A stretch of DNA of 64,000 bases from the NCBI GenBank assembly GCA_934757825.1, contig CAKVLP010000001.1, forward strand, positions 430,869-494,868, given 5' to 3'. The translations under genes and the position numbers were made by a program. This stretch comes from an uncultured Clostridia bacterium (GTDB lineage Bacteria > Bacillota > Clostridia > Christensenellales > UBA1242). Below the pieces are notes generated by a model. It did no database searches and was not told where the DNA came from. It was given only the letters and a program-made list of their open reading frames with translations. Every line of letters begins with the position of its first letter. Positions within the stretch are counted from its first letter, which is position 1. Positions 24,181 through 60,720 of this stretch are shown here, one piece after another.

Positions 24181-24185
24181 TAAAT

Positions 24186-44901: not shown

Positions 44902-47658
44902 TTATCTATTTTGTATAGCGTCAATAGGGCGTTTTTTAGAAATTTTAATTGATGGAATTAGACTTGAAATAAATGCCGAACCCCAGCAAATTGCAAGCAA
45001 CAACAATATTTGACGAAGTCCGAATGAAAGTAGCACAACGGAAACGCCAATTGCCTTAATGATAACGCGGTTGATTATCATACTTCCAACAAATGTTGCA
45101 GTGGCTGATAATACAAAGTTTATAAACGCAATAATTGTGCTTTCGTTAAAGAATATTCCGAAAATATCGCTTCCTCTTGCGCCAAGCGCACGAAGCACGC
45201 CGATTTCACGTTTTTTATAACTAATACTCGTTGAGATAAAGTTCATAAGAAGTAGGGACGCAAACACTGCAAACGCAATGGCTACATACAAGAATATTGT
45301 GCTAACACTGGTAATAATGTCCTCAAAACTATCAAACACTTCGGTTGCACCGTTTACAACTGCAAATCTAGTGTTTTCGGAATTTATAGTTTCGCAATAT
45401 TTAATAAGTTCGGCGTCTTGGCTGGTGCCTTGCATAAATGTGTAAATTGAATTGTAATTTGACATACTTTCGTAGTGTTTATAAGTATTGGCAAATCCAT
45501 TTCCGCCCAAAATATTGTTGTTATTGCTTTGTAGTGTGCCAATAACTTTGTATGTTCCAATCTTTTCTCCGCCATAGGGTTTGGTGTAAATTGAAATATA
45601 AAGTTGATCGTTATCAATTTGGGTTTTGTAATCGCTTACTCTGTTTTCCAAAAGGCCATAGTAAACCATAATTTCATTGTCGCCGATTTGCACAAATTTC
45701 CCATCAGAGCCAATTATTTTTTCAACCCCGCCTTTAAAATAGTTGATATTGTAATATTTAACAAGGTTATAGTCATTAGAGTATTCCTTTGCCAAGTTGT
45801 CTGCCCACTCGTTAAATGTAATGCTTACTTCATCTCCCCAAATATTTTGTCTGTTTGAAGCGTCGTTAATTTCCATATATGCGTATGTGGAATTTTCCCC
45901 GTTCAATTTGTTTAATTTTTCCATATTTGATGAAGATACGAATACCCAGTTTGAAATACCCGACATTATCCTGCTGGTAATTTCGTTTGCAACTTTGTAG
46001 TTTGATTGGATTTCGCTGTCTTTTAGGCTTTCGTATTTGCTGAAATCGGACTTGTCGTCCACAATGCCCACAACATCAAACTGCACTTTTTCGTATCGGG
46101 AGTCGTCGTCCTCGTAGAAGTTGTTGATTGTAAGTTTTAGTCCAGAAAACGATGTTAAATTCATATCGGGCAAGTTTTTTTCTAGTACATTAAACAAGTG
46201 CTTTGTGATTGCGATTTCGTGGTCGTTGACTGGCAATCTTCCCTCTATTTCAAAATCGCCCGCTTCTAAGTCGTCGTTTGAGAAGTTTGCAAATTTTGTG
46301 GCGCAAAACTGCCAAACATAGTTAACCTGTGAAGGAAGTTCTTGCCCGACAACGTCCATAGTGGCAAACCTGTATCTGCTCCCGGCTACTGGCTTGAAGG
46401 TATAATCTGGGAATTTTTGGCTTAGGTTTTCAATGTCGACAGAAGAAAAATTCATGTCGTTCATATATGTATTGCCTTCTTCTCTTTGTTGTTTTTTGAA
46501 AACCACAATTTTTTGATTGTCGTATTTTATTCCGTCATAAACAGAAGTTGCCCTGTTCCAAGTGGAGAAGGTATCTATTAGACCAAACACTGTAAATGCG
46601 AAAAATGAAAGGAGTAGTGTGAATATAAGTTTGCCGACTTTTGTTTTTAGCGAACTAGCGCCCATTTTAAAACTGTCGGAAAATTTAAGGTGCGACTTAA
46701 TTAGTTTTAAACTGTTGCCGTTGTAATTTTGTTGTTTGATGTCGGAAGGAGTGGTCGCTACAAAAGACTCTTTGTTTCCCTCGTCATTTATCTTTGCGCC
46801 CTCTTTAAGTTTTTTGTTTCCCTCTTTGTCAAACGATATGAATAAGTCCGATTTTTCAACGTTTCGTTTTATAAACTTAGAAAGACTGTACACCTCGCTA
46901 TCGCTAATTTGTTGACCTTTTTTGATGTACAACATATCGTCGCCAATGAGTTTTATGCCCGATGCGGTCTGACGGCTTTGAATTTCTTTTTTCGTCATAT
47001 CCGAAATAATCTGGCCGTCTTTAAGTTCTATAATTCGGTCACCGTAAACCTCGGCAAACTCGCGGTCGTGCGAAACTATTATCACAAGTTTTTTCTCAGA
47101 TAGTTTTTTAAGCGTGTCCATAACTTGCTTTCCGGTGTTGCTGTCTAGCGCGCCAGTAGGCTCGTCCGCCATAATGATTTCGGGGTTTTTAATAAGCGCA
47201 CGCGCAATCGCAACCCTCTGTTTTTGACCGCCAGAAAGTTGGTTTGGTTTGCGGTTTGCATACTGAAGCATATCCACTTGTTCTAGTAGCGCATTTACTT
47301 CTTCTTTTCTTGCCTTTTTGCCTTGAAGTTCTAGCGCAAGGGCAAGGTTTTTGGCTACTGTGAAGTTTTCCAAGATGTTGTACTCCTGGAAGATAAAACC
47401 AATAAAGGTGTTTCGATAACTATCAAAGTCGCTCTGTGTGAAATCCTTGCTGGATTTGCCCTTGATAATTATTTCGCCGGAGTCAAACTTGTCTAGACCA
47501 CCAATGGCGTTTAAAAGAGTACTTTTACCACTACCGGATTTGCCCAACAAAAACACAAGGCCTGTTTCGGGAAACTCGATGCTAACGTTGTTTAGAGCGT
47601 ATACGGTGTCGGCTTTTTTGGTTTTGTAGATTTTTACCAAATTTAATACTTTTAACAT
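44902..47658 (-). CDS. ABC transporter, ATPase fused to a MacB/FtsX-type permease
   Basis: 918 aa with Walker A GKSGSGKST, signature LSGGQKQRVAIARAL and Walker B IIMADEPTGALD. Also has a large extracytoplasmic domain and a C-terminal FtsX-like 4-TM bundle. Confidence 0.8.
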   Translation of the reverse strand: MLKVLNLVKIYKTKKADTVYALNNVSIEFPETGLVFLLGKSGSGKSTLLNAIGGLDKFDSGEIIIKGKSSKDFTQSDFDSYRNTFIGFIFQEYNILENFTVAKNLALALELQGKKARKEEVNALLEQVDMLQYANRKPNQLSGGQKQRVAIARALIKNPEIIMADEPTGALDSNTGKQVMDTLKKLSEKKLVIIVSHDREFAEVYGDRIIELKDGQIISDMTKKEIQSRQTASGIKLIGDDMLYIKKGQQISDSEVYSLSKFIKRNVEKSDLFISFDKEGNKKLKEGAKINDEGNKESFVATTPSDIKQQNYNGNSLKLIKSHLKFSDSFKMGASSLKTKVGKLIFTLLLSFFAFTVFGLIDTFSTWNRATSVYDGIKYDNQKIVVFKKQQREEGNTYMNDMNFSSVDIENLSQKFPDYTFKPVAGSRYRFATMDVVGQELPSQVNYVWQFCATKFANFSNDDLEAGDFEIEGRLPVNDHEIAITKHLFNVLEKNLPDMNLTSFSGLKLTINNFYEDDDSRYEKVQFDVVGIVDDKSDFSKYESLKDSEIQSNYKVANEITSRIMSGISNWVFVSSSNMEKLNKLNGENSTYAYMEINDASNRQNIWGDEVSITFNEWADNLAKEYSNDYNLVKYYNINYFKGGVEKIIGSDGKFVQIGDNEIMVYYGLLENRVSDYKTQIDNDQLYISIYTKPYGGEKIGTYKVIGTLQSNNNNILGGNGFANTYKHYESMSNYNSIYTFMQGTSQDAELIKYCETINSENTRFAVVNGATEVFDSFEDIITSVSTIFLYVAIAFAVFASLLLMNFISTSISYKKREIGVLRALGARGSDIFGIFFNESTIIAFINFVLSATATFVGSMIINRVIIKAIGVSVVLLSFGLRQILLLLAICWGSAFISSLIPSIKISKKRPIDAIQNR

Positions 47659-48025
47659 TTCTCTTTCCTTGAAAATTATTTGTTATTATAAATGTTTAAA
47701 ATAATAAATATATAACATCAAAAGTATACATGATTTTTATAGAATTATCAAGTGCGATGTTGGTATTTTTAAATTAGCCCACGCGTGTAAAGTTTTATCC
47801 TTACACAAATACCAATAAATCCTCACAAAATTAGCCCGTGTGGGCTTGTATAACCTTGTGACGATGTTGGTCCCGTGTGTGAAATTCGATTTATGAAAGC
47901 TTTTTATCTGATAGGCGTATAATAACTTTTGTTTTTTAAATTCACTCAAATAGAATTGAAAATTGAAAGCGCATAGGTTTTGCGCTATTGTTATTTTGTG
48001 ATATAATATCTTTAAAGGTGAAGTT

Positions 48026-48424: not shown

Positions 48425-48458
48425 CAAAATCATTATTTTTGATTAAAGAGGGATAATT

Positions 48459-48902
48459 ATGAATATAAAACAATGTGATGTTTGCGGTAATAAAATACTT
48501 GTTGATAACTATGGAAATGGGTGTGATTGTCCTATTTGCGGTTGGAGGCAATCGGAGGAATCTTTTAATCATCCAAATACTGCGGGGGTTAGAAATATTC
48601 CAACCTTAAATAATGCTATAAAACAATTTAAAGAAGGGAAATCTGCAACATTGGCAAATTTTGAAGACTTCATTAGTGCTTTCAATAATTATGGAGAGTT
48701 GGAATTTACTTACGACAACAAAAGATTTGGCGTATTGTTGGATGATAAAAGCAATAATATTATTTTATTAAACATTGAAAACAACCAAAAACAATATTAT
48801 TCCAACATTGATAGTTTTGCGCGTACTTCTCAAATAGATGGAATCCCATTAAAAACATTATGGAATAGAGTGACAAATACAGATTTCTTACAAGAAACTT
48901 AA
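48459..48902 (+). CDS. Zinc-ribbon (CPCC-like Cys-rich) protein, paralogue of 59268..59693
   Basis: CDVCG...CDCPICGW four-Cys ribbon at the N-terminus. The first ~26 nt are identical to the start of the 59268 gene. Confidence 0.5.
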   Translation: MNIKQCDVCGNKILVDNYGNGCDCPICGWRQSEESFNHPNTAGVRNIPTLNNAIKQFKEGKSATLANFEDFISAFNNYGELEFTYDNKRFGVLLDDKSNNIILLNIENNQKQYYSNIDSFARTSQIDGIPLKTLWNRVTNTDFLQET

Positions 48903-48947: not shown

Positions 48948-49021
48948 AAAAAAAATCACTAGCAAAACTAGTGATTTTTTGTTGTGGTGCCGAAGGTGGG
49001 GGTCGAACCCACATGAAGTTG
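48948..49021. repeat. Direct repeat copy 1: terminator hairpin plus the last 37 nt of tRNA-Leu(CAA)
   Basis: AAAAAATCACTAGCAAAACTAGTGATTTTTTGTTG+TGGTGCCGAAGGTGGGGGTCGAACCCACATGAAGTTG is identical, apart from one A in the A-run, to 60648-60720. Confidence 0.9.
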
Positions 49022-49182
49022 TTTTTAGAAGGTTATTATTTGCTTAATGTCTCGATGGATGTTTGTTTAAATATAAGCATGCTCTTAATTTAAAAAATCA
49101 GTATGGTAAAAGATAATTCATAATTGTAGCGGGAGTAAATTTAGTATCCTGATACAATTTATCATGTTTTTCCAAAGAAGTA

Positions 49183-49211
49183 TTGACTTTTTATCCGACT
49201 TAATTTATAAT
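49183..49211 (+). promoter_or_regulatory. Promoter of the island A operon
   Basis: TTGACT, 17-nt spacer, TATAAT, 30 nt upstream of the first ATG. Confidence 0.55.
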
Positions 49212-49240
49212 TGCATAAAGAATTTACGAATGAGGCTGAT

Positions 49241-50197
49241 ATGAATTCAATGTTTCAAGAAAATTTAAAAAAACTTGCAAAGCAATACACTCAGAAGGGT
49301 ATTGCGGATAAAACAGGCTTTTCTCAATCTAGTGTTAATAATTATATTTTTGGTGTCAGTGAACCGTCCATACAATTTCTAATTGCATTAAAAGATGCAT
49401 TTGGGGTAAGTGTGGACGATTTTTTGTTTTCTGATTTTGAAGTGGAAGAGAGAGAAACTTATAGTAGATATATTGGGAATTATCTCATTTATTATTATAA
49501 CAATGATTCCTACAAAGGAGAAGTTCATACAAATCTAAAAAATACATTAAACTATGGTGTTTTGAGTGTATTTAAGGATAAGCCGTTTGATAAGTCGGTT
49601 AAGGTTAATGCCATTTTTACAAAAGAACGCACAGATGCGGTAAAACTTTTAAAAATATTAAATTCAACAAAAGAAGTGGGTAAAGTTTATTTAGATTTGA
49701 ACAACTTTTATGTTGGTGATATATCGGCCAGTGATCAGAGCATATTTATTGATTTGGCAAACAAAACAAATGGTGACAAAAGTTTTATTATTTTAAATAA
49801 TCCACCTTCAAAACAAAGTTATATAGGCGGGGTAGGAACATCTAATTCAATTGCAAGGGGTAGAGAACATAACCCATGCATTCAACTTATAATTTTATCA
49901 AAAAAACTCATTGATGTGCCAGATGGAGAGCTGTATAATTTGTTAAAGTTTGATGACTATACAGTAAATATGGATTTTGCAATCAAAGATATAATTTCCT
50001 TGTTTAAGCGTTTGTATGTGGAAAAAAATGAAATTTCAATTGAGCTTACTGACAATCAAAAACAAGCAATTGTGAAAAATAAAATGGAATATCATTTTAA
50101 TGAAATATTGGAAGCAAATGTATTTAGATTTGCGAAAGTTTCAAATAAAGAAGACGATGCAATTTACAAACTAATAAGGGAGGGCATTGATGTTTGA
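49241..50197 (+). CDS. XRE-family helix-turn-helix protein with a ~250-aa C-terminal domain of unknown function
   Basis: The N-terminus (LKKLAKQYTQKGIADKTGFSQSSVNNYIFGVSEPSIQFLIALKDAFGVSVDDFLF) is a typical Cro/CI HTH. Start set at the ATG preceded by GAGG. Confidence 0.6.
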   Translation: MNSMFQENLKKLAKQYTQKGIADKTGFSQSSVNNYIFGVSEPSIQFLIALKDAFGVSVDDFLFSDFEVEERETYSRYIGNYLIYYYNNDSYKGEVHTNLKNTLNYGVLSVFKDKPFDKSVKVNAIFTKERTDAVKLLKILNSTKEVGKVYLDLNNFYVGDISASDQSIFIDLANKTNGDKSFIILNNPPSKQSYIGGVGTSNSIARGREHNPCIQLIILSKKLIDVPDGELYNLLKFDDYTVNMDFAIKDIISLFKRLYVEKNEISIELTDNQKQAIVKNKMEYHFNEILEANVFRFAKVSNKEDDAIYKLIREGIDV

Positions 50198-51614
50198 GGA
50201 TATTGATAAACGATTTGATAGCCTTCTTGAAGCTGTAAAATCCAACGATTTGCCTGTTGAAATAATTAAAAAAGCATATTTAAAAGCGAGGAACTTACAC
50301 AAAGACCAAAAGCGTAAAGATGGCACACCATACATAAGTCATCCCGTTGAAGTTGCACTTATTTTGGCAAAACTTAATTTTGATGAAAATGTCATTGCTG
50401 GTGCTTTACTGCACGATACTATTGAAGATTGTGGATACACTGCCGATGAAATGAAAGCAGATTTTAATGAAACAATTTTTAAACTTGTTGACTGTGTTAG
50501 TGCAATCGACAAAACGAAATATGTGTTTAACAAAGAAAACATTTATGAAGACCCAGAATTTGTTAAATCTTCAGCTGAAGAGCAGACTTTTAAAAAACTA
50601 ATCACTCTCGGCAAAGAGAATCCATGTGGATTTGCAATAAAATTTGCGGATAGATTGCACAATTTAAGGACAATTGAAACATTTGATTATACAAAGCAAC
50701 TTGAAAAAGTGCGAGAAACCGAAAAATGGATTCTTCCTATTGCCAAAGCTCTTAAAGGCGAATATTTTTACAGAGCAATAAAAAATGAATGCTTTAAAAT
50801 TCAAAATCAACAGATAATAAAACCATTTTTGGAACACTATTCAATTTACCACAACTCAAATCAAAAAAATATTGAAAATTTGAACTATAAATTTAAAGAG
50901 ATATTTGCGAATTCATCTATAAAAACAGTAAAGATAAAAAATGTTAGAGAATACAAAGTTTTTGAAGATCTAACAAGGTTGTATAAAAAGGTTGATTTAG
51001 GTAAAATTTCACAAGGACAAATTTTAAAAGTTGCAAACTACAATATTTTTATGATTTACCAAGATGTGCCACATAAAAAAGCTTTAGCTGAAGTTATAAA
51101 TCTATTGAATGCGAAAACAAAGCTTAAAATTATTGATACAAAAATCGGTGGCTTTACAGGTAAAATGTATATGGAAGTTGAAGATGATTGCAAAAACAAA
51201 TATAATGTTTATACTCTTACGGCGAATGAATATACAATAATGAAAGTTGGAACTGCTAATGGTCAAAATCTTGATAAGATAGACGAAGAGAATATCAATG
51301 AACTTGATATGGATTTAATAAAAGTTAAAACTCGTTCCGGAGAACTGCGTTATATTGCGAAGGGTAGTACCGTTTTGGATTTTGCGTTTAAAATTCATAG
51401 AGATATCGGTTTTGCATTTAAGTATGCGATAGTTAACGACAGTAAAACAAAATTTCCACCATACACGAAATTGAATGATGGAGATAAGGTCGAAATAGTA
51501 ACAGAAAAAGATTCGAATGGCGATGCGAAAAATTGTGCACAACTTAAGTGGCTGGCATATGTTAATAGCGAGTTGGCAAAGAAAAATTTAATAAAATGGT
51601 TTGAAAAATTATAA
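50190..51614 (+). CDS. RelA/SpoT-homologue: HD (p)ppGpp-hydrolase-type domain plus TGS domain, with no recognisable synthetase motifs
   Basis: HD region PYISHPVEVALILAKL...ALLHDTIED...ADRLHNLRT. TGS region IKVKTRSGELRYIAKGSTVLDFAFKIHRDIG...LNDGDKVEIVT. The ATG overlaps the upstream stop (ATGTTTGA). Confidence 0.8.
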   Translation: MFEDIDKRFDSLLEAVKSNDLPVEIIKKAYLKARNLHKDQKRKDGTPYISHPVEVALILAKLNFDENVIAGALLHDTIEDCGYTADEMKADFNETIFKLVDCVSAIDKTKYVFNKENIYEDPEFVKSSAEEQTFKKLITLGKENPCGFAIKFADRLHNLRTIETFDYTKQLEKVRETEKWILPIAKALKGEYFYRAIKNECFKIQNQQIIKPFLEHYSIYHNSNQKNIENLNYKFKEIFANSSIKTVKIKNVREYKVFEDLTRLYKKVDLGKISQGQILKVANYNIFMIYQDVPHKKALAEVINLLNAKTKLKIIDTKIGGFTGKMYMEVEDDCKNKYNVYTLTANEYTIMKVGTANGQNLDKIDEENINELDMDLIKVKTRSGELRYIAKGSTVLDFAFKIHRDIGFAFKYAIVNDSKTKFPPYTKLNDGDKVEIVTEKDSNGDAKNCAQLKWLAYVNSELAKKNLIKWFEKL

Positions 51615-51629
51615 TGGGAGAACACTAGT

Positions 51630-52802
51630 ATGTTATGTAGAATTATAAAAACCAAAAAAAGTACGGAAGTTGTATTAGTGCAGGCAATAACAGAAGATTT
51701 GCAAAAAATAAACATGATATTTGAAAGAGCTTTATTTGATGAATATAATATAGTTAATTCAAATATAGTTGATTTAGATGTAGAAAAAATAAAAGACTTT
51801 AAAGGTAATGATATTTGGAATGTTGTTAAAATCAACAAGTTATTTTATGGGAATAAAAAAGAGCCTTATAAAAACCCTGAAGAATTACACTATTCACAAA
51901 AGACTACTATAAATAGAAAATTTATACAAGCGTATAATGCTGGAGATAATTTAAAAAAATGGATTTTCAAACAAAAGCTAACAGAGCAGTTGTCTAAATT
52001 GATGACTGAAAAAGGATTTATGCGTATTTACACAAATAATATTATGGATGAACGTGGAACGTCTATTGTAAATCCGATGAAAGTGTCATCTAATTTTAGC
52101 GAAACAAAGTATTTGAAAATAACAAATGAATTATTGCTGAAAGAGGCATCTTTTCTAACAATGCAACCTGTTTTTGAGATTGGTTATGTGTCAAGGGATA
52201 TTTATAAAAACAGGGATGATTTAAATGAATATTTATCTTTAGAGGCAGTGCAAAATATAAAACTGAACTATGATCTAGCAGAGTTATATCACGAAATTTA
52301 TGAGACAGCAGTTGAAACAGCTCAACGATGTGGACTTGAAGACAGCATATCAGTTCCACCTATTCGCATTGTGGATGTTTTAAAGGAGTTTAAATATGCT
52401 GGTAAATTTGATATTGGTGCATTTAAAGATTATTATAAAACATTAGTTAAAACACTAGATAAAGAAAATGTAATTTTTGTAAATGCTCCTACAAACTCTC
52501 CATTAGCTAAAAAGATAGATATTGGAATTGGATTGGAAACAAAATGGAGATTATGTGGTGCTGGTGTTGGTCATGGATATTGGAGTGAAATTGACCATGA
52601 GTTAGTATCCCAACATATGCAATATCAAGTTGATGAGTTAAAATCTAAAGGAGTTGATACTAAATTACCATTAAACTTTATAAATTCATTAAAATATGCC
52701 GGAATGGAAAATTGTGCATTTAATTTAGGAATTGATAGATTTTATTATAAATTTTTAGGATATCCATCCATAAGAGATTCTGAAAATGTTTTAGGACTAT
52801 AA
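51630..52802 (+). CDS. Class II (subclass IIb, Lys/Asp/Asn-type) aminoacyl-tRNA-synthetase-like ligase paralogue
   Basis: Motif 1 region LMTEKGFMRIYTNNI, motif 2 region VFEIGYVSRD...NEYLSLEA and motif 3 FNLGIDRFYYKFLGYPSIRDS. The N-terminus is only ~100 aa and highly divergent. Confidence 0.65.
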   Translation: MLCRIIKTKKSTEVVLVQAITEDLQKINMIFERALFDEYNIVNSNIVDLDVEKIKDFKGNDIWNVVKINKLFYGNKKEPYKNPEELHYSQKTTINRKFIQAYNAGDNLKKWIFKQKLTEQLSKLMTEKGFMRIYTNNIMDERGTSIVNPMKVSSNFSETKYLKITNELLLKEASFLTMQPVFEIGYVSRDIYKNRDDLNEYLSLEAVQNIKLNYDLAELYHEIYETAVETAQRCGLEDSISVPPIRIVDVLKEFKYAGKFDIGAFKDYYKTLVKTLDKENVIFVNAPTNSPLAKKIDIGIGLETKWRLCGAGVGHGYWSEIDHELVSQHMQYQVDELKSKGVDTKLPLNFINSLKYAGMENCAFNLGIDRFYYKFLGYPSIRDSENVLGL

Positions 52803-52812
52803 GGAGATTTAA

Positions 52813-54027
52813 GTGAAAAAAGTATTAGTAATGTGGCCTCCACAATTAATGTTTTATGGAAGTGTATTTAGGCACTTTACTTTTGTAGGAGAAACAATAG
52901 ATTACATATGTAAAAATGTAGATGCAGAAGTTGAATATATTGATTGTGGAATTGAAATGTATTCTCTAAAAGTTATTCAAAATCACTTTAAAAACAATCA
53001 ATATTTGGTGATTTACGGAGAAACTTATACCATAGAATCGTGTAGGAAAATGGCTAAATTGGCAAAGCAAGTAAATCCACAAATAAAGATTATTGGATTT
53101 GGCAGAGCGTTTTGTTATATGCCACAATATTTTTTAAGCAACAATTTTGATGCGGTTGTTGTAAATGGTTTTTGGGAAAAATCTATTGTAGACTTTATTA
53201 ATGAAAACACGGCGGATGATTGCGGTGAAATCCTTACACTGGAAGGTCGAAAAGGTAAACCTTATCAGTTGCAACCTGATGAATGGGGTGTCCCTAGGTT
53301 GGATAAAATCCCATATGAAAAGTATTTTGAGATTACTCAAAAGAAACAACTGGAAATATGTGTTAATAAAGGATGTCCTTATAATTGTTCTTTTTGTTCA
53401 GAGAAGTTTGTTTATGGGAGGAAAGAAGGTAGAAGAAGCCCCAATAATTTGATAAAGTTTATAGAATCTTCTCATCACTTGTGTGATACTTATTTCTTTG
53501 ATGCTACAACATTTACATTTGATAAACAATGGGTAAAAGAAGTATGCGAAAAAATTAAAGCGTTGCCTTATAAAATAAAATGGTGCACTACAACTAGGTT
53601 AGATGAATTAAGTGAAGATTTAATTAAAATGATGTCAGAAGCCGGTTGTTTTAGATTAAGTGTTGGTGTCGAGACTTTGAATAAAGATATACAAAAAAAC
53701 GTGCATAAAGAAATAAATTATAACAATATGATAGATTTGTTCAATTTGTTAAAGAAATATAATATAAAGCCTCGAGCATTATTAATTTGTGGCCTTCCTG
53801 GTCAAACAAAAGAAGAATTGTTGCATACATATCAAAAAGTAAAAGAAATGGATTTGGATTTTCGTTTTAAAGAATATGCACCGTATAATGAAATTTTGAA
53901 AGATGGGGTAAGTAGACAGGTTATTGATAGATTTGACAGAACTGAATATATGAGTGATGATATAGATGTCAAGGATTTGTCTTCAGAACAATATATGGAA
54001 CTTTTATTTGCTGATACCGGGAGGTAA
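52813..54027 (+). CDS. B12-binding-domain radical SAM enzyme (class B-like)
   Basis: N-terminal Rossmann-like cobalamin-domain layout followed by the CxxxCxxC cluster (CPYNCSFC). GTG start with AAGGAG RBS. Confidence 0.75.
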   Translation: MKKVLVMWPPQLMFYGSVFRHFTFVGETIDYICKNVDAEVEYIDCGIEMYSLKVIQNHFKNNQYLVIYGETYTIESCRKMAKLAKQVNPQIKIIGFGRAFCYMPQYFLSNNFDAVVVNGFWEKSIVDFINENTADDCGEILTLEGRKGKPYQLQPDEWGVPRLDKIPYEKYFEITQKKQLEICVNKGCPYNCSFCSEKFVYGRKEGRRSPNNLIKFIESSHHLCDTYFFDATTFTFDKQWVKEVCEKIKALPYKIKWCTTTRLDELSEDLIKMMSEAGCFRLSVGVETLNKDIQKNVHKEINYNNMIDLFNLLKKYNIKPRALLICGLPGQTKEELLHTYQKVKEMDLDFRFKEYAPYNEILKDGVSRQVIDRFDRTEYMSDDIDVKDLSSEQYMELLFADTGR

Positions 54028-54030
54028 AAT

Positions 54031-55071
54031 ATGATATTATATTTAAAATCTTCTATTTCAATATCCGCTTATACTGGATGTTTAATAGGGTGTAAATATT
54101 GCATACTTGGCACATGTAGAGAAAACAATAAGATATGGAAAGTAATTGATGAAGAGAAACTAATACAAAATCTAAGTGATTATAAATATTTTGTTAAAGA
54201 TTTTACGCCTATCACAATTAACAATACTAGCGATCCATTCCTAAACAATATATTGAAGAAAAGTACTTTTAAATTATTAAACTTAATAGAACAAAAAGGA
54301 TGGAAAAATCCATTGATTCTCATAACTAAAGGCTATTTAAGTGATGAAGATATAAAAATATTAAGTAAAGTTAATCTTAATATGTATATATTTTACACAT
54401 TGTCAGGATTGTCGGAGACTATGGAAAATAGAAACTTATCAACTCAAATATATACTATAGAAAAACTTTCTACATGTAAGAATATTAAATTAATTCATTA
54501 TTGGCGTCCTGTAATAGAAGGAATAAATAGCGACGATAAAACGATAGAGTCGGTTGCAATATTAGCCACAAAATATTTTAAAGCAAGTATAATTTCAGGA
54601 ATAAGGGTTAATTCGCATATTAAAGACATGTTCGCAAAAGAAAACATTCCAATGCTAATATCTCCAAACGCTGAACATAAAGTTATTTTAGATAAGACCT
54701 TTAGAAAAATATATGACAAGTGTAAAGAATTGGATCCGGGATATAGGATATTTAAAAAGACGTCTTGTTGTATAAGTTATTTTGAAAATGATGTTGATTA
54801 TAATGGTTATGCATTATCAAAAAAATTTTGCTCTGAAGCTTGTCCTAATTATCAAAATTGTTCACATGCAAAATATCCAAGCAAAAGAGATATCGGCAAA
54901 CTATTACATAATTTTGGTATCAAATCAAAATACTCCATAGAAAAATATACGCTACATATTCATACTACACTTTCTCAAGAAGACTGTTCAGCAATTAGGC
55001 ACAATCTAAAGATCAAAGTTATTCCCGATAAATTGATAAAAAGTAATTCGGAGGATGAATTATCAAAATGA
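54031..55071 (+). CDS. Radical SAM enzyme (SplB/COG1533-like) with a Cys-rich C-terminal region
   Basis: YTGCLIGCKYC (CxxxCxxC) near the N-terminus. The C-terminus has SCCISYF...FCSEACPNYQNC. GGGAGG RBS upstream. Confidence 0.7.
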   Translation: MILYLKSSISISAYTGCLIGCKYCILGTCRENNKIWKVIDEEKLIQNLSDYKYFVKDFTPITINNTSDPFLNNILKKSTFKLLNLIEQKGWKNPLILITKGYLSDEDIKILSKVNLNMYIFYTLSGLSETMENRNLSTQIYTIEKLSTCKNIKLIHYWRPVIEGINSDDKTIESVAILATKYFKASIISGIRVNSHIKDMFAKENIPMLISPNAEHKVILDKTFRKIYDKCKELDPGYRIFKKTSCCISYFENDVDYNGYALSKKFCSEACPNYQNCSHAKYPSKRDIGKLLHNFGIKSKYSIEKYTLHIHTTLSQEDCSAIRHNLKIKVIPDKLIKSNSEDELSK

Positions 55072-55604
55072 TATCGATTTGTTATGATTTGCACAACACT
55101 TTGATTAAAAGTGATCCAGCATGGTTAAAAGCTTTTAAGAAATTGTGTAAAAATAGATACCCTGTCATAAAACAAGAATATAAATTTATGAGTAGAAAAG
55201 CTATATGTAGGAAATACAATATAGATTTTGAAACCCTTGAAAACGAGTACAGAAAACATATACGATTAAATAAAAAAGTGTGTAAGACATATTATAAATA
55301 TTTAGATGAGTATCCAACGATGATAATATCAAATGCTCCAGCAAGTCGTGTTTATAAAGATATTGAAAAATGTAAACTTAATCACGATTTAGTAAAGATT
55401 TATACAAAAGAAGATGGTGAAAAGCCTGCTAGCAAATACATAAATAAAATATTGTCGCAAAATAAAATTCAATTTGCTATAATGATTGGAGACAACAAGG
55501 ATGAAGACATATTTAATCTAACAAACGTTAAAACAATGCTCGTTGATAAAACAAAAAATATAAACAAAGAGATAAATAAAATATTGGAGAGTTTAAAAAG
55601 ATGA
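55068..55604 (+). CDS. HAD-superfamily hydrolase with atypical motif I
   Basis: Motif I YDLHNTL (DxHxT instead of DxDxT), motif II ISNAP and motif IV IGDNKDED. The ATGA start overlaps the upstream stop. Confidence 0.55.
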   Translation: MISICYDLHNTLIKSDPAWLKAFKKLCKNRYPVIKQEYKFMSRKAICRKYNIDFETLENEYRKHIRLNKKVCKTYYKYLDEYPTMIISNAPASRVYKDIEKCKLNHDLVKIYTKEDGEKPASKYINKILSQNKIQFAIMIGDNKDEDIFNLTNVKTMLVDKTKNINKEINKILESLKR

Positions 55605-56266
55605 AAATTTATTTACTTAGTGGGCCAGATAAATATAAAGGATATTGTGATGTTCTTAAAGCAGATATAAGCAATGAGGTCAATAATATAAAATGTTTAG
55701 TTGGCATTGCCGCCAATCCCAATAAACATGAGAAGAACGATAAAATGTTTTTTGGTGATGGGGCTTGTCCTGGCGTTGTTAATATGTTAAAGTCTTGCAA
55801 CATTCAAATAGACGAAAGCATTTTAATAGATGATAGAATGGATGTTCAAACTGCGAAATTAACCATAGAAAGAGCTGATGCTATATATTTGTTGGGTGGC
55901 GACCCTATGAGTCAATACAAATTTATTGAAAGTATTGGTTGTCTTGAGGTATTAAAAGAATTTAGTGGAATTATATTTGGTATTAGTGCTGGTTCAATGA
56001 ATTGTTCAAATAATGTTTTATATTTTGCAGAGGATGGGTCTAACGATATAATAAAATATAAAGGGTTAGGGATTTCTTCAGTATATATCTACCCTCACTT
56101 TTCAGTAGACAATGAAGAATTGGTTTCACAATTAAAACAGTTATCGCAAGATACGGACATTTTCGCTTTGCCAAACGATTCTTATATTAAAACAACTAAC
56201 AACAAAACCGAGATAGTAGGTAAATGTTATTTATTTTCAAATCGAAAGATTACGGAGTTGAATTAG
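55601..56266 (+). CDS. Peptidase S51 (dipeptidase E / cyanophycinase-type) family protein
   Basis: AIYLLGGDP...GISAGSMNC...YPHF matches the GG(N/D)...G-x-SAG-S/A...H arrangement of S51. The ATGA start overlaps the upstream stop. Confidence 0.6.
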   Translation: MKIYLLSGPDKYKGYCDVLKADISNEVNNIKCLVGIAANPNKHEKNDKMFFGDGACPGVVNMLKSCNIQIDESILIDDRMDVQTAKLTIERADAIYLLGGDPMSQYKFIESIGCLEVLKEFSGIIFGISAGSMNCSNNVLYFAEDGSNDIIKYKGLGISSVYIYPHFSVDNEELVSQLKQLSQDTDIFALPNDSYIKTTNNKTEIVGKCYLFSNRKITELN

Positions 56267-56818
56267 TTGGAGCTAATTAAGTATTATAATCAAGATGGTG
56301 ACTACGTAAAGACATTAGAAAGAAATCATCCATCTTCTAAAGAATTATGGTACAATATTGTTGTAGGATTAATTGTAAATTTAAAATTTCGAAAATTATA
56401 TTTACAATTAGATACCGAAAATAATCTACAACTAACTGCTGGCGGACACGTACAATGTGATGAAGAATCTAATGAGGCTATAGCTAGAGAAATATTGGAA
56501 GAAACTGGAATAAATGTTGGCGATTGTGAGTTGTTAAATACATTTACATATAAGTGTTATTCTAAAAATCAGTTCCATAAATATTATATATATAATGCGG
56601 ATATTACATTAAACTCGTTTCAAATAAAAGACAAAAAAGAGGTATTAACTTTTATTGAACTTGATATAGATGAATTGTTAAACCAAGCAGGCTGTATTGG
56701 AAAAGATGTTGAGGGAATTAAAAAAAGTCTAAATTATTATGAGGTTGTAAAAGCCTTTAATGGTGAATATGTTTTATATCAAATATGTAATATTATAAAA
56801 AATCTTCCATCGGTATAA
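56267..56818 (+). CDS. Nudix hydrolase
   Basis: Nudix box GGHVQCDEESNEAIAREILEETGI. TTG start directly after the upstream TAG. Confidence 0.7.
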   Translation: MELIKYYNQDGDYVKTLERNHPSSKELWYNIVVGLIVNLKFRKLYLQLDTENNLQLTAGGHVQCDEESNEAIAREILEETGINVGDCELLNTFTYKCYSKNQFHKYYIYNADITLNSFQIKDKKEVLTFIELDIDELLNQAGCIGKDVEGIKKSLNYYEVVKAFNGEYVLYQICNIIKNLPSV

Positions 56819-57071
56819 CGTTGGAAGATTTAATTTTTGTTATAAATAAATTTGTATTGTTCCTTTTTAAAAGATTGTTTTATTTTGGTATCCTAGCGTG
56901 TGCTTGTCTTGATGCAAGTAAACGCTTTTGTTCCGCCTTGAGATGATAAACGAGAACTCTTTATTGTCTCTTTTTTTGGTGTTGTGTTTCATTTTGGCTT
57001 GTTATTGAGCACATTAAACGGTAGTTTAAGCAATAAAAAGACTAAATCAAATATTTGATTTAGTCTTTATT

Positions 57072-57127
57072 TGGTGCCGAAGGTGGGGGTCGAACCCACA
57101 TGAAGTTGCCCTCGCAAGATTTTGAGT
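57072..57127. repeat. Direct repeat copy 2: last 56 nt of tRNA-Leu(CAA), from CCA through the anticodon loop
   Basis: TGGTGCCGAAGG...CCCTCGCAAGATTTTGAGT is identical to 60684-60739. It is preceded by a different hairpin (AAAGACTAAATCAAATATTTGATTTAGTCTTT). Confidence 0.9.
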
Positions 57128-57442
57128 TGTTTATATGGTGTTTTATATGGTGTTGTTTTGCACCATTTTTAATTAAATAAATCTTAAAAAATCCCTATAA
57201 ATAAAGGAGTTCACACATATTGATTGGTTATTTTATGCCATATCGTGTTATCACATATTCAGTTGGTTTTTTTTCGTGTTTTGGGGAAATTTTGCGATTA
57301 TTCGTTAAAAAACTATCAAAATTTTGGCACCACTTCTTGCATTTGCTACATCTGTCAGTTAAAATGCTATTAACATAAAAACTAAAAAGGTTGGAGATTG
57401 TAATTTTACAGTCTTCAACCTTTTTGCATTAAAGGAGTGCTT

Positions 57443-57868
57443 ATGGAAAAGTGGGAAAAGGAAATGTCAGAGAGAAATAGAATTGTTCAGGCTGAAACAG
57501 ACAAGATCAATAACGAGATTTTGCAAATTCCAGCATGTTTGACCGAAGAAGAGAAATTGGCATATGAAGCGATTGTGAAAACGTTAAAAGAGAGTATCAG
57601 TTATAGGTTGTCGCACAGTGATGTGGAACTTATTTGGCAATATTGCCAAATAAAAATTATGAGAGATAGGGCTTGGAGAGAATATAATAAAAATCCAGAT
57701 AGATACATTCGAATTGTTACGGGAATATGCAGTGATGGAAAAACTCCAAAAGTTATGGTTAAAGAGAACGAACATTACAAAACTTTGATAGACTGCAACA
57801 AACAACTTGAAAAAATCTTAAAGGATTTAAGGCTTACGCCAGATGCAAGAGCAAAAAGAAGATTTTAG
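57443..57868 (+). CDS. Phage terminase small-subunit-like (P27-family-like) protein
   Basis: 141 aa, helical, with the C-terminal LRLTPDARAKRRF tail reminiscent of the P27 family. This is a weak call made from memory. Confidence 0.35.
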   Translation: MEKWEKEMSERNRIVQAETDKINNEILQIPACLTEEEKLAYEAIVKTLKESISYRLSHSDVELIWQYCQIKIMRDRAWREYNKNPDRYIRIVTGICSDGKTPKVMVKENEHYKTLIDCNKQLEKILKDLRLTPDARAKRRF

Positions 57869-57912
57869 AAAATAAAATCCTTTATTTTGCGTTATTTATA
57901 AGGAGAATTATT

Positions 57913-58962
57913 GTGGAACAGTTAAAAATTGAATATATAGAAATTGAAAAGTTAAATCATTATGAAAATAATTCAAAAATACATACGAAAGAACAAGTTG
58001 AGCATATTGCAAATTCAATTAAAGAATTTGGATTTAATGATCCGTTGGGAATTGCTGGCGACAATAATGTTGTTTTGGAGGGAAATGGTAGAGTTGAAGC
58101 AGCAAGAATGCTTGGTATAACAAAAATTCCTTGTGTTAGACTTGACCATTTATCAAAAGAAGAACAACAAGCTTATGTAATCGCTCATAACTCAACAAAT
58201 TTGGAAACTGGGTTTGATAGGGTTGTATTAAAAAAGGAATTAGATAAGCTACAAGGAAGTTATGATTTTTCAATGCTCGGACTAAGTGAAATTGAAATTG
58301 AAAAATTACAACATATTAATGATGAGTTTTATAAACAATTACTTAATTTACAAACAAAAAAACTTGTTAGAAATGAATTTAAAATGGTTGGAAAGTTTGA
58401 ACTTCCCATAATTTTAAAAAATGACTTTGAATTAGAGAAAATTAAACTATATAGTTATAGCAATACAAAGTATAATGATGAAAGGAATAGGTTTAAAACA
58501 ATTCATTTTTTTATTCATGATTATAGATTTGAAAGTATTTATGAAAATGCTGAATATGCAGTTGAAAAACTAAAACAATATCATGCATTATGTTCACCTG
58601 ATTTTAGTTTATATGCAGACATGCCATTAACATTACAAATGTATAATACTTTTAAAAACCGTTGGTGTGGAGCATATTGGCAAAGTTTGGGAATAAAAGT
58701 AATACCAACAATATCGTGGAGTGATGAGCGTAGTTTTGATTTTTGTTTTGATGGTGTTGAAAAAGGAAGTATCGTTGCAATTTCAACTCACGGTAATCAT
58801 AAATGTAAAGAAGAATTTATGCTTGGCTATGAAAAGATGTTGGGAATAATTAGTCCTAGTGCTATAATATGCTATGGAAAGCCCTTTCCAGAAATGAAGG
58901 GTAACTTAAAAGTTTTTCCATACAATCACTACGAACATAGTGAGGCTAAATATGAAAATTAA
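57913..58962 (+). CDS. ParB/Srx-like N-terminal domain fused to a DUF4417-like domain
   Basis: ParB-N region IEKLNHYENNSKIHTKEQVEHIANSIKEFGFNDPL...LEGNGRVEAARMLG. C-terminal region IHFFIHDYRFE...CSPDFSLYADMP...NRWCGAYWQSLGIKVIPTISW matches my recollection of DUF4417. Confidence 0.65.
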   Translation: MEQLKIEYIEIEKLNHYENNSKIHTKEQVEHIANSIKEFGFNDPLGIAGDNNVVLEGNGRVEAARMLGITKIPCVRLDHLSKEEQQAYVIAHNSTNLETGFDRVVLKKELDKLQGSYDFSMLGLSEIEIEKLQHINDEFYKQLLNLQTKKLVRNEFKMVGKFELPIILKNDFELEKIKLYSYSNTKYNDERNRFKTIHFFIHDYRFESIYENAEYAVEKLKQYHALCSPDFSLYADMPLTLQMYNTFKNRWCGAYWQSLGIKVIPTISWSDERSFDFCFDGVEKGSIVAISTHGNHKCKEEFMLGYEKMLGIISPSAIICYGKPFPEMKGNLKVFPYNHYEHSEAKYEN

Positions 58963-59251
58963 TTTACAACTTTTTGGCGGAAGGGGAATCAGTAGTGGTG
59001 GAAATTTTCGTGGCAACTCTAAAACTCCATTTAATGGTGCTCCTAATTCTACATATACATGGTATAAAAATGGAAACCCGTATCAAAAACGGTGGTATGA
59101 TAAAAATGGAAAGCCTAAATTAGATAAAGATTTTACAGATCATGGAAATGGTAAGGCTCATCCTAAGTCGCCTCACTTCCATGACTGGGAAGATGGTCAA
59201 AGAGGTAGAGGGTATTGGAAAGATTCAAGTGGAAGAAAACACTATTTTTAA
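58952..59251 (+). CDS. Small protein with an N-terminal MKINLQLFGG motif and a His/Trp/Gly-rich C-terminus
   Basis: 99 aa. The start overlaps the upstream gene by 11 nt. The NLQLF(G/A) N-terminus is common in Firmicute phage head-associated proteins, recalled from memory. Confidence 0.4.
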   Translation: MKINLQLFGGRGISSGGNFRGNSKTPFNGAPNSTYTWYKNGNPYQKRWYDKNGKPKLDKDFTDHGNGKAHPKSPHFHDWEDGQRGRGYWKDSSGRKHYF

Positions 59252-59267
59252 TAAAGGAGGAAAAAAT

Positions 59268-59693
59268 ATGAATATAAAACAATGTGATGTTTGTGGGAAA
59301 AATATAAAAGTAGATAAATGGGGTAATGGTAAGTGTAAAAATTGCGGGTGGATTCAATGTGAAGCGTCTTTAAAAAACCCAAATGAAGTTAAATATCCTA
59401 ATATTACTTCATTCAATAACGCGAAGGAATTAAGTGTTAAGAAACAAAAACTAAAACCAACATACGAAGAGTTTATAATTATCGTCAAAGAAAATTTAGA
59501 GCCAAGTTTTAAGTACAAAAATAAAAAATATGGCAATACAAATTTTAATGGTTTTGAATTTTTTGAGTTTAATTCTGAAAAGTGCTATCAAAAATATTCC
59601 TCTATTGAAGAATTTGATAAAAATGTAAATATAAATGGAAAACACTTAAAAGATTTGTGGGATAGTGTAAACCACTTTGAACTAAATTGTTAA
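59268..59693 (+). CDS. Zinc-ribbon (CPCC-like) protein, paralogue of 48459..48902
   Basis: Start chosen at the ATG with AAAGGAGG 7 nt upstream. MNIKQCDVCGKNIKVDKWGNGKCKNCGW parallels MNIKQCDVCGNKILVDNYGNGCDCPICGW. Confidence 0.5.
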   Translation: MNIKQCDVCGKNIKVDKWGNGKCKNCGWIQCEASLKNPNEVKYPNITSFNNAKELSVKKQKLKPTYEEFIIIVKENLEPSFKYKNKKYGNTNFNGFEFFEFNSEKCYQKYSSIEEFDKNVNINGKHLKDLWDSVNHFELNC

Positions 59694-59745
59694 AAAAATA
59701 AAATAAATAATTAAAATAAAATGGATTTTATGTTATCATAGTCAT

Positions 59746-60450: not shown

Positions 60451-60647
60451 TACAAATTTTGTTTAAGAAAACTTGCGCCAAACATTGTACTAACAGATAA
60501 TGAAAAAAATCCAGATGCATATATTGTGCAAACGACAACTCCAAAACAAACGAGCCTTTTTGATTGGTGAAAGCGATGTTGGTTTTAAGTATGTTGCTCG
60601 CAAGAAATAAATCCAATTATTTTGGAAATTGAAAAACAACATAAAAT

Positions 60648-60720
60648 AAAAAAATCACTAGCAAAACTAGTGATTTTTTGTTGTGGTGCCGAAGGTGGGG
60701 GTCGAACCCACATGAAGTTG
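60648..60720. repeat. Direct repeat copy 3: hairpin plus tRNA-Leu 3' end (part of the intact gene)
   Basis: See copy 1. Confidence 0.9.

Follow-up and report, generated by a model that had tools for sequence, protein, structure and literature searches.

The subject of this analysis is an operon of eight genes, here called g1 to g8 (plus strand, 49211-56818), found in a 64,000-nucleotide stretch of DNA from an uncultured Clostridia bacterium (Christensenellales, UBA1242; contig CAKVLP010000001.1 of assembly GCA_934757825.1, positions 430,869 to 494,868), which is referred to below as the window. The operon is real, very rare and horizontally mobile, and it is built around a four-gene core consisting of g3, which derives from class II lysyl-tRNA synthetase (LysRS2), g4, an AprD4-like radical S-adenosylmethionine (SAM) protein, g5, a novel radical SAM protein, and g6, a hydrolase of the HAD superfamily with a DxHxT motif. 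Relatives of the operon in other gut bacteria carry a spare LysRS of unrelated structure and genes for tRNA-Lys beside this core, which suggests that the operon makes an undescribed compound attacking the lysine charging of tRNA. More specifically, it could be a biosynthetic cluster for a lysyl-nucleotide-like antimetabolite directed against class II LysRS, in which the producer would be protected both by detoxification and by a bypass of the blocked enzyme; we put this forward as a tentative reading, which falls just short of probable.

The g3-g6 core, its family and its companions

Encoded at 51630-52802 on the plus strand, g3 is a compact LysRS2 paralogue of 390 aa, against about 500 for LysRS, in which an N-terminal OB fold precedes the catalytic core (tRNA-synt_2, Pfam, E 2e-9). 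Its top matches in NCBIfam and among PDB sequences are LysRS, and when an AlphaFold2 (AF2) model computed from a family alignment of 15 sequences (predicted local distance difference test, pLDDT, 85) was submitted to Foldseek, ranks 1-28 were all class II LysRS chains, with E about 1e-18 over about 450 columns that include the OB fold. The arginines of motifs 2 and 3 (R189 and R370) are invariant, as are the glutamates equivalent to E240 and E278 of LysU, and both the AF2 model and the Foldseek matches agree on an OB fold followed by a class II core that carries these arginines. A bona fide LysRS2, understood as a full-length protein scoring above the cut-off and having a complete lysine, ATP and Mg2+ site, it is not: it reaches 41.9 bits against PRK00484, for which the cut-off is 468, the equivalents of E264, Y280, E421 and N424 are replaced, several of the LysRS residues that bind Mg2+ and lysine are substituted, and an invariant His-Gly-Tyr is present. 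The class II ligase resembling an aminoacyl-tRNA synthetase (aaRS) that the first-pass annotation of this DNA had proposed therefore stands, and can be specified as a trimmed LysRS2. The anticodon-binding signature of class IIb synthetases (R...F...IQ) is kept in 11/15 orthologues and is missing from the window clade; there, as in the relative L001, its F and Q have been lost and the whole operon is still kept. The match of g3 to genX amounts to E 0.006 (16 bits, cut-off 287). As a resistant housekeeping LysRS the protein was considered and rejected, because its scores lie far under the cut-offs and because it co-occurs with class I LysRS (LysRS1). Among g3-like proteins, one is fused to a dTMP kinase (locus L028) and another, P0115, to a radical SAM domain; a further one, P0119, matches EpmA at 1e-12.

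The two radical SAM genes follow directly. g4 (52813-54027, plus strand; Radical_SAM, Pfam, E 9e-21) has a CX3CX2C motif and a B12-binding-like N-terminus, for which the match to the B12-binding profile is weak and lies below threshold (E 1e-3, 19 bits against a cut-off of 32). Its closest solved relative is the diol dehydratase AprD4 (6fd2, E 4e-17), an enzyme that is not known to use cobalamin. g5 (54031-55071, plus strand) belongs to an undescribed radical SAM subfamily; it matches Pfam weakly, has its CX3CX2C motif at C17/C21/C24 and four additional invariant or near-invariant cysteines (C246, C267, C271 and C277), and its AF2 model (pLDDT 90.5) shows a radical SAM barrel without a close structural relative, the best fold matches being the PFL-activating enzyme, spore photoproduct lyase and viperin, with template-modelling (TM) scores of only about 0.5. 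By profile search, neither g4 nor g5 is lysine-2,3-aminomutase-like. The last member of the core, g6 (55068-55604, plus strand; HAD_2, Pfam, E 9e-10), reads D-x-H-x-T in motif I in 12/12 orthologues examined and keeps motifs II-IV; it is probably a phosphatase. The domain set that had first been read from the letters of the operon, including this DxHxT protein, is borne out by the Pfam profiles for all the genes, the weak match of g5 being backed by its AF2 model.

The family is extremely small. Only 18 full-length relatives of g3 were found in 5.8 billion clustered proteins, and it is present in 4 of 185,579 species genomes, all of them gut metagenome-assembled genomes (MAGs) of Erysipelotrichaceae, Bacilli or "Tenericutes", together with 3 additional metagenome contigs; a profile search of 1.84 billion representatives returned 40 proteins at E<=1e-30, beyond which lie ordinary synthetases. 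A phage-borne element was rejected as an explanation, since 2.9 million viral contigs contain no g3 relative and the matches in PHROGs are limited to generic HTH, HD and Nudix proteins, and so was a plasmid-borne cluster, as there are no g3 relatives in 72,556 plasmids and the plasmid homologues of g5 are all distant and belong to another module. The order g3-g4-g5-g6, found in each locus whose DNA was available, is kept in 16 loci, with protein identities of 28-45% and in varied genomic contexts, due to which a chance juxtaposition could be rejected as well: the co-occurrence of homologues in other genomes, whose absence had been named at the outset as what would overturn the operon, is observed, and it is collinear. 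In the most divergent family member, LysRS1, the two radical SAM genes and g3 stand together in a different order. What could not be seen from the letters of the window is that only g3 to g6 form the conserved core, the HD-TGS gene g2 and the S51 peptidase gene g7 being frequent accessories, and the HTH gene g1 and the Nudix gene g8 being specific to the window clade.

Two types of core can be distinguished, best seen in g4, whose identity is 54-93% inside type A (where it is the best-conserved protein of the core) and 67-93% inside type B, but about 34% when the two types are compared. Across both types, g2 is 64-83% identical, and an 81-aa LysRS1 remnant from L005, a type A locus, shares 83-90% identity with the LysRS1 genes of type B; this similarity of the accessories across divergent cores points to a conserved accessory frame in which cores are exchangeable. 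The closest relative of the window operon, L007, has all eight genes (g3 82% identical) and lies between GreA and TauE/Rnf genes with no tRNA near, so the operon has moved as a unit. The locations of the family include tRNA-flanked islands and sites beside toxin-antitoxin and restriction-modification genes, some relatives adjoining AbiEii/ParD, type I restriction-modification and Fic genes, and several loci lie among housekeeping genes.

The genes that accompany the core in relatives are what leads to lysine. In 9 loci (L008, L009, L010-L015 and the contig of P0018) the core adjoins a class I LysRS whose HIGN and KMSxS motifs are intact, and L005 and L006 contain pieces of a class I LysRS pseudogene. 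MAGs in which a LysRS1 has this position are GCA_023666445.1, CADBDE01, JAFQQQ01, CANPWK01 and UREA01. In L008 and L009 this LysRS1 is fused to an additional tRNA-binding domain (Trbp111/MetRS-C-like), and genes for tRNA-Lys(UUU) and tRNA-Lys(CUU) lie directly upstream of it (L008 7163-7317; L009 9871-10033); a decayed copy of the same tRNA-Lys(UUU) follows the HAD gene of L003 (13988-14060). The presence of LysRS1, and sometimes of two tRNA-Lys genes, beside the core suggests that the lysine charging of tRNA is the process at stake. A dedicated unusual tRNA, in the style of the pyrrolysine system, was rejected: these are ordinary-looking tRNA-Lys(UUU/CUU), and most loci lack such genes. It may be added that the tRNA-Lys(UUU) of L008 has a C3:A70 mismatch in its acceptor stem. 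In the distant locus L028, which has no radical SAM genes, the dTMP-kinase-fused g3-like gene has for neighbours a pair of S51 genes, a gene resembling NadR-type kinases and a class I LysRS. This LysRS1 comes from a different, bacterial-type clade (NF001968, 799 bits) and looks like an independent recruitment, so that the kernel formed by LysRS2 paralogue, S51 and LysRS1 is seen with two independent LysRS1 lineages. S51 genes adjoin the core in 12/16 family loci and in both distant loci; GNAT genes without S51 occur in L003, L008 and L009, both are found in L013, and most loci have S51 only. Less regular companions are a class I SAM methyltransferase (L010-L015 and L017), Nudix (the window, L007 and, on the other strand, L009), CYTH (L018) and, in the related locus L021, a histidine phosphatase standing in for HAD. 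A ThiF gene lies near L003, outside the conserved unit.

Regarding the accessory proteins of the window itself, g7 (55601-56266, plus strand; Peptidase_S51, Pfam, E 3e-11) is a serine peptidase of the PepE/MccG type, assigned to S51 at the level of the Pfam family, with a GxSAGS nucleophile elbow and the histidine of a PH motif, while g8 (56267-56818, plus strand; NUDIX, Pfam, E 4e-8) is a clade-specific Nudix hydrolase whose Nudix box, GX5EX7REUXEEXGU, is intact as read in the sequence. The regulator g1 (49211-50197, plus strand; HTH_3, Pfam, E 2e-9) is of the XRE type, RstR-like and similar to phage repressors of PHROGs; it occurs only in the window and L007, and its C-terminal domain of about 250 aa has a fold without assignment and weakly resembles (E 1e-7) a 358-aa protein of the Roseburia locus L008 whose gene adjoins one for HD-TGS. 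A weak PADLOC match to a CARF domain (PDLC01868, E 0.028) covers about residues 90-201 (49460-49870); if it is real, the g1 repressor could sense a nucleotide ligand.

The 475-aa protein g2 (50187-51614, plus strand; HD_4 E 3e-24 and TGS E 3e-15, Pfam), which probably starts at ATG 50190, turned out to be more than the simple HD-TGS fusion that had been described as RSH-like. Both domains are there, the HD and ED motifs being intact (HPVEV...LLHDTIED, aligned to Rel hydrolase domains with E 5e-35), and between them lies a synthetase-fold remnant from which about 30 aa of the substrate-binding segment are absent, which makes it a Rel/SpoT-type protein with a degenerate synthetase (184 bits against the spoT_relA profile TIGR00691, cut-off 499). 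With long Rel it thus has in common, and in the same order, an HD domain of the (p)ppGpp-hydrolase type, a synthetase-fold middle and a TGS domain; unlike long Rel, it is without the complete synthetase segment and ends about 35 aa past TGS, without the C-terminal ribosome-binding domains (helical, zinc-finger and ACT/RRM). The window g2 gives no Pfam match to the RelA_SpoT synthetase domain (PF04607), which is matched by fuller forms in relatives, all of them with QTQIRT, that is, with Gln at what we take to be the catalytic Glu of the canonical Rel motif ExQIRT. An active alarmone synthetase was rejected on these grounds, and since the window protein has lost the substrate-binding part of the synthetase and relatives carry substitutions there, the conserved activities are most likely those of the hydrolase and of TGS, a domain that binds the CCA end of tRNA in Rel and ThrRS.

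Several further loci were seen around the family. In L021 (121-4851) a variant order is found, with histidine phosphatase, S51, g4-like and g5-like genes and a 412-aa protein in the place of g3, which was rejected as a g3 homologue for showing no similarity to g3 in profile comparison and no Pfam match; this locus adjoins a tRNA-Gly with an att-like partial repeat. A g5-like radical SAM protein and a DxHxT HAD protein form a stand-alone pair, without g3 and g4, in L019 (10001-11651) and L020, representing a subgroup of roughly 366 aa that is more numerous than the full cluster; there a gene encoding a GLUG-motif surface protein of 1698 aa is found upstream of the pair, and a Sua5/YciO/YrdC gene is close by. 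In L003 (200-8916), and likewise in L004, the GNAT-type cluster has immediately upstream of it genes for a ThiF-family protein of 700 aa, an AAA+ ATPase and a protease resembling ClpP, with a radical SAM/SPASM gene and a 35-aa open reading frame (ORF) on the opposite strand; these upstream genes may be a separate peptide-modification or conflict system. In L012, from a Bacilli MAG, the type B cluster has some 5 kb upstream of it a tRNA-Leu(caa) gene (683-769), the same tRNA species as at the integration site of the window. Finally, distant homologues of g5 (27-30% identity) belong to a module of radical SAM protein, 3'-5' exonuclease, AAA/ATP-binding protein of roughly 195 aa and either HD protein or aldo-keto reductase, which is found on plasmids beside CBASS, toxin-antitoxin, restriction-modification, HNH and DUF3800 genes. 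Its loci include L022 (S. meliloti pSymA), L025 (Streptomyces, where it adjoins thymidylate synthase and NDK), L026 (Gluconobacter), L027 (Mesorhizobium) and L024 (Nostoc), and it is possibly a module for defence or for the modification of nucleotides that has not been characterised.

The operon unit and its island

The compact, co-oriented arrangement first read from the window agrees with the ORF coordinates: the eight ORFs are spaced by 0-15 nt or overlap. At the g1/g2 junction the overlap is of 8 nt (ATGTTTGA); g2 and g3, g3 and g4, and g4 and g5 are 15, 10 and 3 nt apart, g5/g6 and g6/g7 overlap in ATGA, and g7 and g8 abut as TAG-TTG. A sigma-70-type promoter-like site (TTGACT-17-TATAAT, 49183-49211, plus strand) precedes them, as had been pointed out; it is identified only by its match to 11/12 consensus positions, and such matches are frequent in AT-rich DNA here (95 observed vs 76 expected). 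Its -10 box ends at the TTG that opens the g1 ORF (49211), and as the box runs into this TTG, the true start of g1 is probably the ATG at 49241, which is preceded by GAGG inside the ORF. At the other end, a terminator-like hairpin followed by a T run (56800-56835, plus strand; -15.4 kcal/mol, z -4.35) overlaps the end of g8 and closes the operon unit, 0/200 shuffled sequences folding as stably. Control by a riboswitch or T-box was rejected, given that Rfam finds nothing besides tRNA in the window region at E<=0.1 and that the 16 related loci also contain only tRNA at gathering score. No conserved small ORF of the MccA or RiPP (ribosomally synthesised and post-translationally modified peptide) precursor type was found inside or beside the operon, where the gaps measure 0-15 nt, in agreement with what had been noted for the flanks.

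The island on which the operon lies was likewise recognised correctly as AT-rich and flanked by tRNA-Leu sequences, with a GC content of 0.275-0.31 over 48-60 kb vs roughly 0.35-0.45 outside. Its att-type repeats do flank it, and they are three and not two: the 3' end of tRNA-Leu(caa) is present at 48985-49021, at 57072-57127 and within the intact gene (60684-60720). The first copy (48949-49021, minus strand), the outer boundary of the insert, comprises 37 nt of the tRNA 3' end (48985-49021) and a 36-nt terminator hairpin, the same that lies behind the intact tRNA-Leu, the whole 73-nt block being 100% identical to 60648-60720. The second (57036-57127, minus strand) has 56 nt of the tRNA 3' end (57072-57127) with a different hairpin before it, and marks the boundary between the operon and a second inserted segment; the third belongs to the intact tRNA-Leu(caa) gene that served as integration target (60684-60769, minus strand). 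The operon alone fills the first inserted segment, about 49022-57071, between copies 1 and 2. Direct repeats of a tRNA 3' end are thus found at both boundaries, as in tRNA islands, and an integrase gene beside the tRNA is not: neither the ORF list nor profile searches gave any integrase-like ORF between 48.9 and 60.7 kb, in either segment; both segments look immobilised or helper-dependent.

The second segment, between copy 2 and the intact tRNA-Leu gene (about 57128-60683), contains phage-satellite-like genes, namely one resembling a small terminase (57437-57868), one for a ParB_N+DUF4417 nuclease (57913-58962; phrog_940, E 1e-85), one for a zinc ribbon of the CPCC type (about 59268-59693) and one for a 234-aa radical SAM protein (59746-60450), and it looks like an integrase-less phage-satellite remnant. 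A 94-nt direct repeat (48427-48520 and 59236-59329, 79% identity) extends over the ribosome-binding sites and starts of two Cys-rich CPCC genes that are paralogues of each other, at 48459-48902 and about 59268-59693. Each of them lies upstream of the identical 73-nt terminator/tRNA-Leu block, the first directly and the second at about 950 nt, with the radical SAM gene between, an arrangement suggesting that tandem elements were at some earlier time duplicated or recombined with each other. The remainder of the window is an ordinary Firmicute-like chromosome (MetRS, Tex, LeuRS, ABC transporters). Just outside the island, a 33-nt inverted repeat (40970-41002 / 47786-47818, 94% complementary) spans 6.8 kb and brackets a fused ABC-FtsX transporter gene (44902-47658, minus strand). 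Farther away, tRNA-Arg(tcg) (21314-21390) is followed by a low-GC stretch (0.31-0.34) to 25000 that contains a 268-aa SAM synthetase fragment (23206-24012) with a truncated C-terminal domain; the stretch 21314-25000 may be another insertion or a disrupted metK copy.

The possible product and the competing readings

Starting from the observed anatomy and conservation, from the LysRS2 origin of g3 and from the association with LysRS1, tRNA-Lys, S51 and GNAT, the operon can most simply be read as a pathway to a lysine-containing nucleotide or nucleoside, which would mimic lysyl-adenylate or the 3' end of lysyl-tRNA and hit class II LysRS, hence the charging of tRNA-Lys. In such a pathway, g3 would bind ATP and lysine, or a lysine-like acid, and couple the amino acid to a nucleotide scaffold; g4, possibly as a dehydratase, and g5 would rework the ribose, the base or the side chain into a stable product, from which g6 would take off a phosphate. 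g7 would cut the aminoacyl-nucleotide bond, as MccG does on processed microcin C, and g8 would split a diphosphate link, whereas g2 might handle (p)ppGpp-type 3'-diphosphates or sense uncharged tRNA when charging drops, and g1 would repress the operon. In most relatives, a class I LysRS, being structurally unrelated to the target, would bypass the block, two of them adding tRNA-Lys genes, and GNAT, like S51 and Nudix, would detoxify or trim the product. Among the three proposals of the first-pass annotation, it is the first, the making and subsequent trimming of a metabolite that resembles an aminoacyl- or peptidyl-nucleotide, that fits best with the LysRS1, S51 and GNAT associations; the other two, tRNA 3'-end or alarmone chemistry and a defence cassette, are less likely.

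Several published findings bear on this product model. An extra aaRS in a mobile multi-enzyme cluster is the usual sign of self-resistance against an aaRS inhibitor (reviewed in PMC7916415 and PMC8323819), and a class I LysRS can substitute for class II LysRS in B. subtilis (PMC2916919). By experiment, MccG, an S51 enzyme, cleaves the toxic aminoacyl-nucleotide derived from microcin C and MccE2, a GNAT, acetylates its amine; these immunity functions are lost and regained interchangeably, and inhibitors of this type trigger the stringent response (PMC9239234). The S51 and GNAT accessories of the family match this immunity kit, which supports an aminoacyl-nucleotide product, and the nucleotide nature of the substrate is supported by the dTMP kinase fusion, the varied nucleotide phosphohydrolases (HD, Nudix and CYTH) and the phosphatase swap.

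There is also a considerable list of points that speak against a lysyl-nucleotide antimetabolite. The product, the target and every catalytic step are inferred. The window operon and L007 have neither LysRS1 nor GNAT nor tRNA-Lys genes, and for them the key inference is therefore borrowed from relatives, while the LysRS1 of the genomes that carry it could be their sole LysRS and not a spare one. No exporter is consistently linked to the operon across the loci, ABC/FtsX genes being near it only in some. One of the two class IIb Mg2+-binding glutamates is lost in g3, so adenylate formation is not assured, and its OB fold and its anticodon signature (11/15) would be superfluous in a pure small-molecule ligase, which favours a mechanism on tRNA. 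Moreover, the distant g5 homologues sit in modules that resemble defence islands.

Chemistry on tRNA-Lys itself is the likeliest of the alternatives, and we consider it rather unlikely. In it, g3 would bind the anticodon of tRNA-Lys via the OB fold and load or alter its 3' end, after which the radical SAM enzymes would work either on the aminoacyl group that the tRNA carries or on the tRNA itself, and the modified tRNA would be either the carrier for a tRNA-dependent product or a disabled tRNA; LysRS1 and spare tRNA-Lys would sustain translation, or would serve a dedicated tRNA jointly with g3, the CCA end would be recognised by the TGS domain of g2, and GNAT or S51 would clear misloaded tRNA. 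The retention of R...F...IQ in most g3 orthologues and a fold match that covers the OB domain point in this direction, as do the two tRNA-Lys genes inside the cluster in L008 and L009 and the presence of TGS, the CCA-end-binding domain of Rel and ThrRS; besides, LysRS enzymes of classes I and II acting jointly on unusual tRNAs have a precedent (PMC2916919). Nevertheless, the operon is retained whole in the window clade and in L001 although the F and the Q of the signature are gone there, tRNA genes occur in 2 loci only and are decayed in a third, none of the known aminoacyl-tRNA-dependent transferase domains is there, partners such as HAD, Nudix, CYTH and dTMP kinase suggest free nucleotides, and the published role of S51 concerns aminoacyl-nucleotides (PMC9239234). 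A particular form of this idea, unlikely in our view, is a conflict system of a new kind in which g3, recognising the anticodon, and the radical SAM enzymes would alter the 3' end or the aminoacyl group of tRNA-Lys and the host would survive on an orthogonal class I LysRS and its own tRNA-Lys. If true, it would mean that a complete replacement decoding module for one amino acid travels on a mobile element; relatedly, a non-standard lysine derivative may be installed or used on tRNA.

The remaining alternatives leave more of the family unexplained. An anti-phage cassette, in which upon infection the radical SAM enzymes and the ligase would turn a nucleotide into a modified or aminoacylated form able to stop the phage from replicating or being translated, by analogy with viperin-like systems, and the phosphohydrolases would trim or reset it, agrees with the position of the operon on a tRNA-flanked island adjoining a phage-satellite-like segment, with the AbiEii/ParD, type I restriction-modification and Fic genes beside relatives, with the CBASS, toxin-antitoxin and restriction-modification genes that the module of the distant g5 homologues adjoins on plasmids, and with weak PADLOC matches of g4 (PDC-M51A, 8e-11, 39 bits) and g8 (PDC-S07, 3e-6, 25 bits). 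However, these matches are at superfamily level and no PADLOC system is matched, a defence effector does not account for the spare LysRS and tRNA-Lys, six to nine enzymes are many for a defence system and several loci lie among housekeeping genes; the absence from 2.9 million viral contigs was counted as neutral here, and we regard the cassette as decidedly unlikely. It is very unlikely that the island serves resistance only, protecting against lysine analogues or LysRS inhibitors of competitors by means of an insensitive LysRS1, with S51, GNAT and Nudix as detoxifying enzymes and the core as a salvage or degradation pathway. The replacement of class II by class I LysRS in B. subtilis (PMC2916919) and the basal resistance conferred by stand-alone MccG homologues (PMC9239234) would suit it, but the invariant part of the family is the four-enzyme core, biosynthetic in character, and it is the protective genes that are variable and repeatedly lost. 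Highly improbable, lastly, is a metabolic or modification pathway of the usual kind whose place on islands would be incidental, such as cofactor synthesis or a protein lysylation like that of EpmA/EpmB. EpmA is indeed a LysRS2 paralogue that works with the radical SAM protein EpmB, and there are the weak genX match of g3 (E 0.006) and the EpmA match of the g3-like P0119 (1e-12); against this, the family is extremely rare and taxonomically patchy, g3 has retained an OB fold, which is missing from EpmA, neither radical SAM protein resembles lysine-2,3-aminomutase, and the link to LysRS1, tRNA-Lys, S51 and GNAT would go unexplained.

Comparison with known systems

No described system with the composition of the operon was found in PADLOC or in searches of the accessible literature, in line with what had been supposed from the outset. 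Among the eight proteins PADLOC recognises no system, giving a generic HTH for g1 and no match for g2, g3, g5, g6 and g7, and a known defence system (pVip/PADLOC) was rejected because the matches stay at superfamily level; neither an NCBIfam equivalog nor, in full-text literature searches, a description of the gene set was found. ThiF (PF00899) has no match in the eight proteins or their flanks, and a RiPP or microcin C-type cluster was rejected for the lack of both a precursor ORF and ThiF.

The closest parallel to the proposed product is nonetheless microcin C (mcc), a peptidyl-nucleotide antibiotic whose aminoacyl-nucleotide part, imitating an aminoacyl-adenylate, inhibits an aaRS of class II(b). 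Immunity would be alike as well, the candidate microcin-type enzymes being S51 in the window and GNAT in some relatives (by Pfam-level membership), just as S51 (MccG) and GNAT (MccE2) are swapped interchangeably on mobile elements in microcin C systems, where the stringent response is triggered as a side effect (PMC9239234); further immunity enzymes of those systems are MccF (S66) and MccH (HIT). The enzymology, in contrast, is different, since microcin C is made from the short MccA precursor, which ends in Asn, by the ThiF-like MccB and the operon has instead a LysRS2 paralogue as ligase within a core of two radical SAM proteins and a HAD protein. The target of microcin C is AspRS and that implied for the operon family is LysRS, and the immunity of the family adds class I LysRS and tRNA-Lys, with no dedicated exporter conserved.

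Other likenesses are partial. The clusters for mupirocin, albomycin, agrocin 84, borrelidin and indolmycin have, like the family, an extra aaRS embedded among many enzymes on a mobile cluster, which is usually read as self-resistance by target replacement (reviewed in PMC7916415 and PMC8323819). In the operon family, on the other hand, the extra aaRS is of the other structural class (a bypass and not a mutated target) and sometimes comes with its own tRNAs, and the biosynthetic enzymes are unrelated to those of these antibiotic clusters. EpmA/EpmB (PoxA/YjeK), responsible for the beta-lysylation of EF-P, also pair a LysRS2-derived ligase with a radical SAM protein, but EpmA is without the OB fold, EpmB is a lysine 2,3-aminomutase, and the pair is a widespread housekeeping system. 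Oxetanocin A is a nucleoside analogue produced from a Bacillus plasmid by OxsB, a B12-dependent radical SAM enzyme, and OxsA, an HD phosphohydrolase. It would resemble the operon in the setting on a Firmicute mobile element, in a radical SAM protein with a B12 domain (a putative one in g4) acting on a nucleotide and in phosphohydrolases that strip phosphates; it has, however, no aaRS-like ligase, S51 or LysRS1, and the nearest solved relative of g4 is AprD4. Finally, class I and class II-type LysRS coexist in one organism where an unusual tRNA is the substrate (PMC2916919), the same pairing as in the family, in which the class II partner is, by contrast, trimmed, altered in its active site and set amid radical SAM enzymes, and the tRNAs look ordinary.

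If the product model is true, there is in gut Firmicutes a hitherto unrecognised route by which an inhibitor of the aminoacyl-nucleotide type is made against LysRS, an enzyme for which we know of no bacterial natural product, and this route would be built from a duplicated target enzyme and radical SAM chemistry, without ribosomal peptide and ThiF and without non-ribosomal peptide synthetase. It would also give a selective reason for the scattered class I LysRS genes among bacteria and be, to our knowledge, the first case of self-protection using the other structural class of the same synthetase, sometimes with dedicated tRNAs. Even if the model is wrong, the repeated linkage, in loci that have diverged widely, of a LysRS2 paralogue with S51, class I LysRS and tRNA-Lys wants an explanation, and the cluster supplies enzymes without characterised close relatives, namely two radical SAM proteins, a DxHxT HAD protein and a hydrolase-only Rel. 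The general kind of system is already known, that of an aaRS-directed antimetabolite cluster with target-bypass and detoxifying immunity, whereas its enzymology, its implied target and an immunity that switches the class of the synthetase and brings tRNAs along are new.

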